Of a stretch of 64,000 nt of DNA, positions 1 to 6,000 are shown one piece after another. Position 1 is the first letter of the stretch, and the number at the start of each line of letters is the position of its first letter. The stretch lies in NCBI RefSeq assembly GCF_003991155.1, contig NZ_CP031295.1; one strand, given 5' to 3'. This stretch comes from Escherichia coli. GTDB lineage: Bacteria; Pseudomonadota; Gammaproteobacteria; Enterobacterales; Enterobacteriaceae. The position numbers were made by a program.

Positions 1-3000
1 CTATTGTTTTTTATCAAGAAAATTAAACAGCAAGCGACCATCTTCTTCAGTGGTATATGTTACCTTTAATGGCGTCTTCTCATTAATTTTCTTCAGAGCA
101 GGTTCCAGGAAGGTACGCTTCATTTCAGCAATATTGTTTTTCTGCGAGGCAGGGAGCATAAACCTTTCACATAACCAGTCATGTGTGGTGATCCAGACAC
201 CAGTGCTCCGGAACTGACACAGGCTTTCATAAAGCCGGATGACACGAACACTATTAAGCTGGCCACAGTCATAGAGAGAATAGGTAGTGAACTGGGAGGT
301 TAAGCCGACCAGGAATGGCATGACCTTGTAGTTAAATTCAATCTGCCAGGAACCCCGGCCTCGCTTCATTCCTGCTTCAGCCAGCCACGGACGTTTAACT
401 TCTTCAAACTCACCTTCTTTTGGATAAAAGGTAACCGTTGATTCGCCCAGAGCATTTACCCCAGCCTTCACATCACGACTGGCGACAGACGTAGCGACAT
501 TGAAGTATTTGACGTAATCGGAAACGCTGATTTTGAAGAGCGGCAATACGTCAGAGTCATCTTCCTGGCTGTCATTAAAATAGGCCTGCATGAGGCATAA
601 CCACAGCACACGTTTTGCCTGAAGAGGCAGGTAATATGCAGCTTCGGTCAATTCGTTAGATTGCTTTATACTGGCGCGTTTTTTAAACGTTTTAGTAGCT
701 GGCAAGAGTGCTTGAGTATCCATTTCAATGCCTATGGGTAAATTTTTACCCACCCATAATGACAGTGAAAACAGAAATTGCAAGCTATCGCGATACTTAT
801 CCACCGGAAAAATCTGCACTTTATCCACAAGTGGATAATTGAGAACTGAACTTGACCTCTTTCCCATAGCTTGTTGATGCGTATCCCATAGCTTGTTGAC
901 ACAAAACCCACTGATACGTGATTAATTTCCCATATTATGTTTACCAGTTGCCCATACAGGCCCCCTCTCAGGCCGCACTGTACGCGGCTTTCAGGCTCCC
1001 TAAAAGATGTAAAATAAAGAAAAAGAATAAAAAAGTACTTTATAAAAATATGCCCGTGGATAAGTGGATAACCCCGAGGGGAGGTGATTTTTCAGGCATT
1101 GAGCGTAAGCAGAATTTATAAGTTTTGTTCCCTGGTGCTTCCTCGCTCACTCGGGGCTTCGCCCTGTCGCTCGACTGCGGCGAGCACTGCTGGCTCGATC
1201 ATATCCGTGGCCGGAAGATACTACTCCTCCCCCGAGTCGCTCTCCAGAGCCGGCTACAGCGAGACAACCCGCACGAAGATTTCTATCGTCCCTGCAGACA
1301 TATTCGAATCGTTTTTATTAACCCTGGCTTCCGTCGTGACAGAACACTACGTCCTGTAAAAGGGGGACTAAGGCCCCTGAATCACACACCTGAAATTAAT
1401 AATGCGGAGTTTTACGATAATGTCATTGCTGGAAACTTTCCTGACCGCTTCTCAGGGGGCAACAATCCTGTTCCTTGCCATGCTGATCTACTGGCAAAAG
1501 CGATAAATCCAAGCGGGCTGGCCTTTGGCCAGCTTCGCTGTATAAGGGGAAAAATGCGGCATATCCAGACATTTCACTAGGCAATTTGAATTCAGATATC
1601 TATGCTTGGGATCCGGTCAACAGGAGGTAACAAGATGAAACTTGAAACTATACAGATAGATAATACCGTAAGGAGTGGTCTTAATTCTTTCACTGACGGG
1701 GTGATTATTCGTGATACAAAGGTATTGATCACGCTCAATCTCCCGGATGGACAGAAAACCACTATTGAGGGGGAATGGCGGCATATGTCGGACGCCAACA
1801 GGTTGTCAGAACGTATTACGATGCTTCAGCATGCGATCTATGAGCAGTATGAGGAATACAGAGCAGATATTCCCGTCAGCTGGTCCAGATAACGTCTGAC
1901 AGACCTCCCCGGCGAGCAGGACGTTCGCCAGCATCATTCTCCTAAGTACTTAAATATTCCCTTTCAGCATGGCTACCGCATCCGCTTCGGGCATCTGAAA
2001 CTGAACTCGATGCCGCGCAGCAACATCAAGTGCGAACACCTTCGTATAGACTTCCGTCGAGCTAATCGATTTGTGGCCCATCAGGCTCTGCAAAACCTTC
2101 AGTGGTATGCCGGCATACAGCATATGCATCGCGTAGGAGTGGCGGAACGTATGCGGGGTGACCGGCACCGAGAATGTCACCCCGTCGACGGCGGCCGCTT
2201 CAACCGCTTCGCCAATCCAGGTCCGTACTGTCCGGTCGGTGATGTCCCAGATGCGGGCTTTCTCTGTTCTGCCGGTACGCTTGTTGCGTCTTTCCAGCGG
2301 AATTTTCAGGGTGGCCACCATCATCTGCAGCTGGCTGACGTAGTGGTGATCGGAAAGCGGAACCAGACGATGAGCCTGGCTACCGGCGGGAGCTCGGCCG
2401 GCTGTCCTGGCCGCTTTTTCGGTGCGCTGCTTAAGCGTGGCCAGCTGCACGAACGGATACGGTGGCACCAGCGAAAAATCCCCCCGGGTCAGCGCCAGCG
2501 CCTCGTTGATACGTGCGCCGGTGTTCCAGAGGGTTGCCAGCAGCATCTTGCGGTGCAAATCGGGCACATAATGGAGCAGGGCGCTGACTTCCGGTGCCAG
2601 CAGGTATTTCGGTAGTTCATCTTGAACGAGCGCCATCTGGCGCAGGGCCAGCGCGGCGGGATAGTCAATGGCCACCGGCATTTGCGCCGGCTGCTGCGGG
2701 TGAGAATATGATAAGAGGCCGCTCATTGGTTTGACATTCCATCAGGTATCACTAATTGATTCCACTCCCTGTTGCGGGTAGCTTCAGCAGCGCGCAGGGC
2801 TCTTTCGCGCCTCCAGACTTTACGAAACACGGAAACTGCAGACCATTCATCATGACCTGTAAGACGTGTTTCGGGCATCCCGGTTGCCTTGCGCAGACGG
2901 ACGGCAAGAATGACAGCGTTGATGCCCAAGCGCGTGAACTGATACTGCCGTTCCCTGAAATAGTCCTTATGCCAAGGAGGGTCGGAGTATTCGGCGGCAT

Positions 3001-6000
3001 ATGCAATTGCCCTGTGGGCCTCATCCTGGAGCACCGGCAGTTCACGGATGCGATACATAAGACGTGGCTCTAAAGTCCGCCAGTCACCGGAGACATCGAT
3101 CAGATTCAGTTCAGGGTAATTCGTGACAGCTTTTCTCTCAGGCTGGGGGGCATCATCATCCTGGCCGTCATCCGTCACAACCCGGAAACAACCCTCAGCA
3201 TACCGTTCAAGCATGAATACCAACTCGGTGGCAATGTAATGCAGTTCCTTTTTCATTTTATCTTCTGACGCCTGTCTCTCACGCTTAAGCGTGAAATAAT
3301 GTGTCAGCCAGATGCCAGTGAGTGTTATACCCCCAGTAAGCAGGCCAGTGATAAGCCCGGTTGCCACGTTTCCCCAGATCCCCGCCCCTTGATTAATCAG
3401 CTGTACGGAAACCGGATGGGATGTCGCAGCAACTATACTCTCAGTTGCGGCCTGTATATCAGTCATTGATCATTTACCCCTTTATATTCCTGAGAAATCA
3501 CACCTTCTGTATGTATTCAGCGGTCGGCAGCCAGCTCATCAGCCAGCTTCACAAACCTTTTGTGCTCAGTCTGCAGGTAATGGCTGTAAATCCGGGCATC
3601 ACGTTCTGTCAGTCCGGATGGATTGCCGGTGAAGTAACGTTGCAGCACCGCAATACAGTGATTGTAGGTATCGAGATCATATTCCCAGTTTCCCAGCTCA
3701 CCGGCCGCATCCAGTTCCTGGCGAAACTGCTCGTATTTACGGAGCAGAATGCCAAGACCTAATTCTGTTGCAGCATAAAGATTATTTTCTCCTGGCGCGG
3801 AAATCGCATTACGGATTTTTTCAAAAGCATAACTGAAATCATTTCTCTCATTGAATGCAGTAAACATGTCCTTTCCTCAGTTGAATAGTTAGCCGTGCAA
3901 TTTTACCACACCTCAATCATCGTCAGATGAGTGCCACTCTGTCGCGACAGTGACTTTCACGAGAGTGATTTTCACATACTAAAATAATAAGCAGCCATAT
4001 AACAACGTAATTAAATTACCTGACGGCCGCTCTGGCCGGATCCGACTTTTATGTTATTCCACAGTTTCCGGAAGTGTACCACGCACACGAAATAACCACA
4101 GCGCCCTTTCAGGGTGGTGAGCGGCCGGTCACGGGGCAGGGGAGGGGCACAACATATATGGTCACTGACAGCTGGAAACACCGCTACATCTTGTGTTGTC
4201 GGGCCGCTGCGCGCCGGTGGGGTTCGCAGAGATCCGGGACTACCTTTTTTCGGATCTCAGAAGTGGAGAAGAGGAATTATTGCAGCATGGACACAAAAAA
4301 CGAGTAATTGTTGCGATGAGTGGACTATTGCACCATGAGCAAATATAAATGACTTTATGCGTCCTGCGGTTAAATATATTGTTCATGCCGTCCGGCTGAA
4401 CCCCGGGTCAGGGGATCAGCCGGGAAGGAGAACGTCACGGTTCTGTTTTCCGCGACAGGGTCTTTCTTTTTTTCTTCAGGTACATCACTTCGTCACATTT
4501 ACCGATCATCTCCGCCAGTGTCGTATAATGGTCTGCGTTATTGATCAGTTCGCCAAAGGAATAATTGATGTTGTAGGGCTTGCCCGAGGTGTCATTGTAA
4601 TGATCGAGACTGGCACTCAGCGCGTGCAGATAAGACTGAGTGTTACCGTTTCGCCGGATCAGGGCGGCAAACTCATCCCCGCCGAGGCGGCCTGCTATTT
4701 CACCCGGTTCAAGGTGCTGATGTAAAAAGCCGGCAAAGATCTTCAGCACCTCGTCACCTTCCGCGTGTCCCCAGAGATCGTTAACCGGTTTGAACCTGTC
4801 CAGATCGAAATAGATGAGGCTGAACGACGCATCCTGCCGGTTCATTGCGCGGAAGAGTTTTTCGCCGGCGCGGTAAAACCCGCGCCGGTTGGGAATGCCC
4901 GTCAGGCTGTCCGTCATGGCCATGCTGATGGCCTCGAATTCGTCCTCCACGATACAGGCCAGGTCCCGGAGGGACGCAATGTCCTCATCCGTGAAGGCGC
5001 GGGGAACGGTGTGGATCAGGCACAGCGTGCCGGCCACCGTGCCATCCGGCAGGCTCACCGGCTGGCCGGCGTAGAACCAGATGTGTGGCTCACCGGTAAC
5101 CAGGGGATTATCGTGAAATCGCGCATCGGCAGCCGCATCGTGAATGATAAAAGGCCCTTCCTGCAGAATGGCGTGCCCGCAGAACGAAATATCACGTGGA
5201 GTTTCGCGCACGCCGACGCCCTGGCAGGCGAGGAGCCACTGGCGCTCGCGATCCAGCAGGCTTATCAGGGCCACCGGGACCTGAAAGGCTTTGCGGGCCA
5301 GCCGCGTCAGGCGTTCAAAACGCTCATCGTCACGGGTATCAAGAAGGCTGGTAATATACAGGGACTTCAGCCTCTGTTCTTCATTCTCCGGTATACCGGG
5401 TGCCTGCATGTAATCTCCTGGTATGTACAAAGTATATATGCAGATGAAAAGGTGTTTGGATCTGACTGAGTGTAATTATAGTTCACGACTTATCTGCCAG
5501 CGGCTGAACTTCAGGTACAGGAATTCACGTTTATCACTCGTACTAGACTCTCCGGAGGACCAGGGGAATGACCGGGTCTGTTACGGTGAGGGAATCTGTA
5601 AACCTCAGGATTTTTGCCGGGAAAGTACGTATAACTGCTATCTTGATTAGTAAATGTTAAAATTTGTAGGTATCCACCCGTTAAACAAAATGATTAATAT
5701 TTAAAAATACTCGTTGAATACCCGTGCCGTAATAATGAAGTACATTAAAAACGTTATCCGGTCATGTGAAGCTGAGACCGTCTCTTCGTCATGTAAAATG
5801 CCGTACTTTCTTTGTCGTGAAGAATGACCGGGTTAAGTCCATAAGGTTGAGAGGAAGTCTGCAGATGTGATACGCTCAAGGCGAGATTTATCTCAGTGAG
5901 AACTCACGGCAACAAAAAGTTTTTGGACAACAAAACACAAAGTTGTTTTGGACTGTAGGAGTCCAAGAGACAATGACATTACATACAACGCCGTGTAACG

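Follow-up and report, generated by a model that had tools for sequence, protein, structure and literature searches.

What do the two genes that precede a tyrosine recombinase gene beside a plasmid replication origin contribute to the plasmid that carries them? These genes, encoding proteins of 116 and 247 amino acids (aa), lie in a 64,000-nucleotide (nt) stretch of Escherichia coli DNA (assembly GCF_003991155.1, contig NZ_CP031295.1), hereafter the window, along which all positions are counted. The original prediction, made from the sequence alone, had placed them on an F-like plasmid and suggested a stability, partition-like or abortive-infection function. All four open reading frames (ORFs) that it listed, the recombinase gene included, were recovered at 1635-3867, whereas the replicon turned out to be an IncR plasmid backbone encoding a Rep_3 RepB, of which the recombinase module is still common to F. 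In the IncR rfsF-resD operon, the 116-aa and 247-aa genes come first after the promoter, and this operon is the counterpart of ccdA-ccdB-resD of F, with two unrelated genes in the place of ccdAB.

The comparison with F starts from the third cistron. Its product carries the Pfam Phage_integrase catalytic domain (residues 41-230, E 2.3e-18) and is 92% identical over 244 aa to ResD of the F plasmid, against only 47% to the RepFIB-linked integrase of F. By this similarity it is a ResD-type short tyrosine recombinase of the F-type rfsF/ResD multimer-resolution system, and papers on IncR plasmids name resD and give its role as multimer resolution at rfsF (PMC7707992, PMC9412624). The F region runs from pifC through two rfsF sites with oriV-1 to ccdA, ccdB, resD, ori-2 and repE, the rfsF sites being located in the pifC-ccdA interval (PMC4398462); in IncR, rfsF has been placed between the resD operon and vagCD (PMC9412624). 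It was observed in the window that a 48-nt block at 4038-4084 is 81% identical to the pifC-ccdA intergenic region, and that the segment at 1020-1422 shares about 72% identity with the resD-repE interval. Taken with the gene order of F, these two matches place the 116-aa and 247-aa genes in the exact slot of ccdA and ccdB, and the block at 4038-4084 is probably a putative rfsF marking the left edge of the exchangeable region.

Both arrangements are three-cistron operons in which resD comes last and abuts the upstream gene, with an rfsF-like block ahead, the origin adjacent and, in E. coli relatives, pifC alongside. However, the products differ, since CcdA and CcdB of F are a ribbon-helix-helix antitoxin and a gyrase poison, whereas the window pair are unrelated in sequence and predicted as four-helix bundles, one of them membrane-anchored. 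The window also differs from F in an additional 85-aa ORF between resD and the origin and in its IncR RepB, where F has RepE. Other plasmids fill the same place in other ways: in the E. coli ColV plasmid pEC-10, pifC is followed by a 116-aa gene, a 229-aa gene and then resD; in AR_0126, an IncR plasmid, resD is preceded by ccdAB (see also PMC7707992); and further resD operons hold ccdAB plus additional ORFs or three unrelated ORFs.

The apparent operon and its 4-base-pair (bp) overlap into the recombinase gene, both claimed before, stood up to closer inspection. A 50-nt spacer separates the 116-aa gene from the 247-aa gene, no terminator-like site was found on the minus strand from 3867 to 1950, and the ATGA shared by the 247-aa gene and resD is kept in 10 independent loci in which the upstream protein retains 30-57% identity. 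In having a small upstream gene and a downstream gene in one operon, the pair shares the layout of CcdAB-like type II toxin-antitoxin (TA) systems. At 3931-3975, 15-bp units occur twice in direct orientation (GTGAAAATCACTCTC, GTGAAAGTCACTGTC), and an inverted partner comes next, forming CACTGTCG|CGACAGAGTG; these repeats, located 64-108 nt ahead of the start codon of the 116-aa gene, are partly conserved in pEC-10 and appear operator-like.

The 247-aa protein is, by profile similarity, a member of PDC-S67, a family of the PADLOC collection (hidden Markov model PDLC05063; E 3.6e-45, residues 47-236 against positions 6-195 of 203), and the alleles of pEC-10 and of Klebsiella quasipneumoniae match the same family (E 1e-17 and 2e-26); it is therefore a defence candidate. 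The phage defence candidates (PDCs) number 145 and were nominated by their embedding in BREX, DISARM or type I restriction-modification (RM) loci (bioRxiv 10.1101/2024.01.29.577857), a source in which the linkage of PDC-S67 to resD is absent. PADLOC defines PDC-S67 as a single gene; in the window it stands between the two other cistrons of a recombinase operon, and it usually follows a small variable ORF. Thus, the earlier statement that the proteins lacked a recognisable domain was correct for Pfam and NCBIfam, where none of the 116-, 247- and 85-aa proteins matched a family above the curated cut-off, and needs correction for the 247-aa protein. Sequence-profile searches of the PDB returned no matches, and the predicted folds were uninformative. 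A word-indexed search retrieved 185 relatives; the full profile search gave 1014 clusters (50% identity), with E values of 1e-10 or better for 634 and a usual length of 200-250 aa. Of 72,556 plasmid records, 1989 contained a relative of the 247-aa protein.

The single transmembrane (TM) segment proposed for this protein was corroborated by one hydrophobic stretch at residues 34-52, bearing the glycine zipper G37xxxG41xxxG45G46, and by the AlphaFold model (predicted local distance difference test score 84, above 90 over residues 50-230), in which a disordered acidic N-terminus leads into a membrane-crossing helix running to residue 97 and then into a four-helix bundle. Lysine and arginine are absent before the TM helix and five follow it, so that the bundle is predicted to be cytoplasmic. 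Residues 1-73 gave a weak match to a holin PHROG (E 0.013), one uncharacterised phage protein was matched in BFVD, and the gene is under purifying selection, with a nonsynonymous to synonymous substitution ratio (dN/dS) of about 0.15-0.3 by the Nei-Gojobori method. Compared with known membrane-acting effectors, namely lambda RexB, the TM effectors of CBASS, Hok-type toxins and holins, it resembles them as a small membrane-anchored protein found on plasmids and prophages, with a glycine-zipper helix that suggests oligomerisation and the weak holin match. However, it shares neither sequence nor fold homology with them, and its architecture of one TM helix plus a cytoplasmic helical bundle of ~190 aa sets it apart.

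The linkage to resD extends well beyond the window. In essentially all of the Enterobacterales loci examined (about 25), the PDC-S67 gene was immediately followed by a resD-type gene or its remnant, and it almost always overlaps resD. Among these loci are plasmids of the IncR, IncFIB and IncFIA types, islands in the chromosomes of Kosakonia, Phytobacter and Pectobacterium, and a conjugative element of Salmonella. On related plasmids the 116-aa and 247-aa genes are conserved, co-oriented and translationally coupled with resD. IncR plasmids of Klebsiella and Citrobacter carry the same 2.5 kb at 99.6-100% identity, and among the plasmid records this backbone was matched partially in 4390 and over most of its length in 891. 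In the resD-linked Enterobacterales loci, an ORF of ~100 aa usually lies ahead of the TM gene, at a spacing of -17 to +65 nt. Across 19 loci, at least 10 unrelated groups of ORFs were distinguished in the position directly before the PDC-S67 gene. In the Salmonella conjugative element, this small ORF (7586-7945 of that locus) has a weak PADLOC match to HamC/DUF3223, of Hachiman type (E 2e-4).

While the flanks of the slot are conserved, its content is not. Across loci, ResD is 65-92% identical and the membrane protein 30-57%; between the window and pEC-10, identity is 97% for the 116-aa protein and 92% for ResD but 35% for the middle protein. Nucleotide homology to pEC-10 (blastn) ends 7 nt ahead of the start of the 247-aa gene and restarts 48 nt inside resD; this right-hand breakpoint is common to five other loci, and homology to F restarts about 46 nt into resD. 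The dN/dS of resD is 0.05-0.15 (Nei-Gojobori), the ratio of dN between the membrane gene and resD has a median of 3.1 (range 0.9-9.3), and the membrane gene shows saturated dS in comparisons that give only 0.5-1.5 for resD. Over the 1989 plasmids, the identity of the relatives to the 247-aa protein is bimodal, with 916 records at 99% or more, 7 at 60-95% and 1041 below 60%. Judged from these comparisons, the middle gene behaves as a swappable cassette, that is, as old discrete alleles shuffled between conserved flanks and not as a fast-evolving gene, and the segment from the operon head to about codon 16 of resD is a slot for the recombinational exchange of alternative cassettes. Positive selection was considered and rejected, as gene-wide dN/dS is below 1 and the divergence was traced to the shuffled old alleles. 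An integron-like cassette array was set aside as well: no direct or inverted repeat family occurs at the cassette edges, and the breakpoints fall in conserved coding flanks.

The first cistron shows a different distribution. Homologues of the 116-aa protein form 104 clusters, all enterobacterial, at no less than 45% identity and confined to mobile elements of Enterobacterales; the gene was found solely at the head of resD operons and is under purifying selection (proportions of nonsynonymous to synonymous differences, pN/pS, 0.29-0.43), and its product is predicted as a soluble, plain four-helix bundle. No homology was found between this protein and the small upstream ORFs of the chromosomal loci. 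The second gene that follows it varies, being a PDC-S67 allele, a 257-aa protein with the motif RHDLVH and a weak HEPN_RiboL-PSP match (locus L041), or a 202-aa protein. In four E. coli plasmid loci (L037-L040, 3392-7900), the 116-aa gene is followed by this unrelated 202-aa protein, which carries RSLEGIH, and by decayed resD fragments; the variant is widespread (1103 blocks in the index), and a CBASS pair (SMODS plus S_4TM) adjoins it in three of the four loci. Two candidate identities were tried and abandoned. A split integrase, with the 116-aa protein as the SAM-like core-binding domain, was prompted by a weak Phage_int_SAM_4 match and is not borne out by the predicted fold. A HEPN toxin was rejected for either protein, as the Rx4-6H motif is conserved in neither alignment and occurred solely in the protein that fills the slot instead in L041; conservation among histidines is limited to H70 and H102 of the 116-aa protein and H56 of the TM protein.

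The surroundings of the PDC-S67 relatives were also surveyed. Their neighbours are frequently defence genes, namely pifA, GmrSD, RES-HEPN, Cap4/MComp1, EcoRII and CBASS, and colicin genes also lie near them. Distant relatives that stand apart from any recombinase occur in the nin regions of two lambdoid prophages, the Klebsiella phage Kp4864-1 and a Citrobacter prophage, while others lie beside smpB in Stenotrophomonas. The nin region of Kp4864-1 (L045, 3745-7732) reads as a stack of moron or defence genes, with a HEPN protein and a 134-aa partner, a gene for the theta subunit of DNA polymerase III (hot-like), the 189-aa PDC-S67 relative, ninB, rusA and Q.

From this evidence, we infer, as a tentative preference that falls somewhat short of an even balance, that the 116-aa and 247-aa proteins may form a conflict module benefiting the mobile element, with phage exclusion or abortive infection as its likeliest role and addiction as a possible second one. 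Of the functions proposed in the original prediction, stability or abortive infection is the best supported, circumstantially, because of the ccdAB slot in F, the PADLOC candidate family, and the relatives in defence islands and nin regions. Partition, on the other hand, finds no support: neither a ParA/ParM-type NTPase nor a centromere-binding domain or fold was found in the two plain four-helix bundles, and IncR plasmids have a separate parAB. Under the conflict-module reading, the 247-aa protein would be the effector. Its glycine-zipper helix would anchor it in the inner membrane and allow oligomerisation, the cytoplasmic four-helix bundle would keep it inactive or sense the trigger, and the activated protein would damage or depolarise the membrane. 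The 116-aa bundle would act by protein binding, restraining or regulating any effector that fills the slot, and not as a DNA-binding antitoxin, while translational coupling would merely secure the expression of ResD from the shared promoter. Sensor plus swappable-effector defence or TA systems offer a parallel, in that both positions of the window pair mix and match, although the likeness is architectural only.

Confidence in this reading is held down by the uninformative folds, by the lack of co-variation within the pair and by the chance that the recombinase next door accounts for the PADLOC nomination, and several observations weigh against it. The 116-aa protein (97%) and the 247-aa protein (35%) do not change together between the window and pEC-10, which argues against a specific contact of toxin with antitoxin. 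In the two prophages, a DNA polymerase III theta homologue stands upstream of the PDC-S67 relative, with no dedicated small partner, which weakens the idea that the family is always paired with one; the Stenotrophomonas members likewise lack such a partner, and a classical toxin would not tolerate this. The 116-aa protein shows neither a helix-turn-helix nor a ribbon-helix-helix fold for autoregulation. A gene-wide dN/dS below 1 gives no hint of an arms race. The nomination by PADLOC could itself be an artefact of the adjacent recombinase carrying the gene into RM or BREX loci, and no mention of PDC-S67 or of five RefSeq protein accessions was found in the literature.

A competing explanation takes both genes as passengers with another membrane role, such as stress tolerance, plasmid exclusion or host interaction, that hitch-hike in a recombination-prone slot. 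The region adjacent to rfsF is a hotspot of module exchange in IncI1 (PMC8004404) and IncR (PMC9412624) plasmids, and the lack of informative homology in both proteins also counts in its favour; however, the slot is otherwise filled by conflict genes (ccdAB and a weak HEPN candidate), and the family is listed among defence candidates and occupies moron positions in prophages, so this explanation is regarded as unlikely. The slot leads equally to the thought of a classical post-segregational killing pair, standing in for CcdA and CcdB and devoid of phage defence, in which a labile 116-aa antitoxin neutralises a 247-aa membrane toxin. The position and the order of a small and then a larger gene are those of ccdA-ccdB in F, vapBC lies just past rfsF in most IncR plasmids, and the ~100-aa ORF usually precedes the TM gene in the resD-linked loci. 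Partner swapping among toxin and antitoxin families is known as well. Nonetheless, the pair does not co-vary, the 116-aa gene also heads unrelated downstream genes and its product has no DNA-binding fold, the phage TM genes stand without a dedicated partner, and no TA family was matched in Pfam, NCBIfam or PADLOC, PHROG giving only families of unknown function and the weak holin; a killing pair of this kind is distinctly unlikely.

The close association with the recombinase prompts a further alternative, in which the two proteins would be accessory or regulatory factors of ResD that tether the plasmid or ResD to the membrane, time resolution or repress the operon, without any part in killing or defence. 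The direct succession of the PDC-S67 gene and resD in about 25 loci, the conserved ATGA overlap, the restriction of the 116-aa gene to resD operon heads, and the protein-binding role of FAT/talin-type four-helix bundles all fit this idea. Against it, the 92% identical ResD of F works in the ccdAB operon without these genes, resD is also found behind unrelated upstream genes, the distant relatives in phages and Stenotrophomonas have no recombinase at hand, and the supposed partner of ResD is far more divergent than ResD itself (35% vs 92%), its alleles being swapped independently; it is accordingly ranked as quite improbable. Spurious ORFs or decaying pseudogenes are a very remote prospect. The 85-aa ORF comes nearest to that description, being narrowly distributed and weakly constrained (dN/dS 0.63 vs 0.84-0.89 in wrong frames), yet many of its homologues keep the exact length of 85 aa, down to 68% identity. 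The 116- and 247-aa genes have ribosome-binding sites, conserved translational coupling, purifying selection, hundreds of full-length homologues and confident folds.

A bolder form of the conflict-module reading holds that enterobacterial plasmids and conjugative elements use the head of the resD operon as a dedicated place to plug in conflict cassettes and that the pair is a new two-component system, made of a soluble four-helix adaptor and a glycine-zipper membrane effector, which would kill or arrest the cell when a phage attacks or the plasmid is lost; this is doubtful, if worth stating. By analogy with the cer-Rcd checkpoint of ColE1, coupling to ResD could even link killing to unresolved plasmid dimers.

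As for the 85-aa ORF, the original prediction was right about its strong ribosome-binding site, an AGGAGG 7-8 nt before the ATG, and not about its orientation: it converges on resD, tail to tail at a distance of 57 bp, and is divergent only from repB. It occurs in 1889 plasmid records, always between the 3' end of resD and the origin (IncR repB or IncFIA-type repE), and is absent from the F plasmid. Its homologues form 68 clusters, with at least 68% identity among near-full-length matches; Pfam, NCBIfam and PADLOC hold no family for it, and its sole match was a PHROG of unknown function. Thus, it is probably a real but narrow and weakly constrained orphan outside the operon. A RefSeq hypothetical protein of 34 aa (1402-1506, plus strand), encoded between the origin-like region and this ORF, is conserved with it in IncFIA-type plasmids.

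Table 1. Features of the resD operon and its surroundings at the start of the window.
Feature	Position	Strand	Basis
repB (Rep_3)	1-867	-	ORF call
85-aa orphan ORF, probably real, outside the operon	1635-1892	+	ORF and AGGAGG ribosome-binding site
resD, short tyrosine recombinase, third cistron, 258 aa	1950-2726	-	Pfam; identity to F ResD
247-aa bitopic membrane protein (PADLOC candidate family PDC-S67), second cistron	2723-3466	-	ORF call
116-aa soluble four-helix-bundle protein (predicted), first cistron	3517-3867	-	ORF call
ATGA stop/start overlap of the 247-aa gene and resD, CAATGAGC	2723-2726	-	sequence; same overlap in 10 loci
Swapped cassette: entire 247-aa gene and first ~16 resD codons	2679-3472	-	blastn breakpoints
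Operator-like repeats, operon promoter region	3931-3975	-	Tandem Repeats Finder; sequence
Probable rfsF-like site (putative ResD target), upstream of the operon	4038-4084	.	81% identity to F

Other features of the window start were recorded alongside. Directly upstream of repB, three TTTCCCATAGCTTGTTGA-like repeats spaced by 22 bp (852-956) look iteron-like or operator-like. Beyond the putative rfsF, a GAF-GGDEF diguanylate cyclase gene (4435-5430, minus strand) sits at the spot held by vagCD/vapBC in most IncR plasmids. It is followed by a patch at 5500-7300 with a guanine-plus-cytosine content of only 35-40% (vs about 50%), which looks like a separately acquired insert and contains a 152-aa HNH endonuclease ORF (6496-6954) and a 125-aa ORF matching no family (6040-6417). 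A DUF305 protein (7342-7743, minus strand) and a His/Met-rich 182-aa protein (7836-8384, minus strand), which by eye resembles metal-binding proteins of SilE/PcoE type, probably mark the start of a metal-resistance cluster around 7342-8384.

The recombinase, the logic of rfsF and the PDC-S67 family were already known. No description was found in the literature of the positional replacement of ccdAB, of the obligate linkage to resD in Enterobacterales, of the cassette behaviour or of the 116-aa family, and the IncR backbone is given as vagCD-resD-repB-parAB-umuCD-retA with the two genes unmentioned (PMC7707992, PMC9412624). These findings provide a useful lead for plasmid biology and defence discovery, which will not surprise specialists until an activity is shown; if the pair had no addiction or anti-phage activity, they would amount to routine annotation of a plasmid backbone. 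In Klebsiella and E. coli, resistance genes are carried to a large extent by plasmids of the IncR, IncFIB and IncFIA(HI1) types, and an addiction or anti-phage module, if true, would partly explain why these plasmids persist although they are non-conjugative. It would also give PDC-S67 its first function and would make the ccd-resD operon of F one case of a general exchangeable slot.

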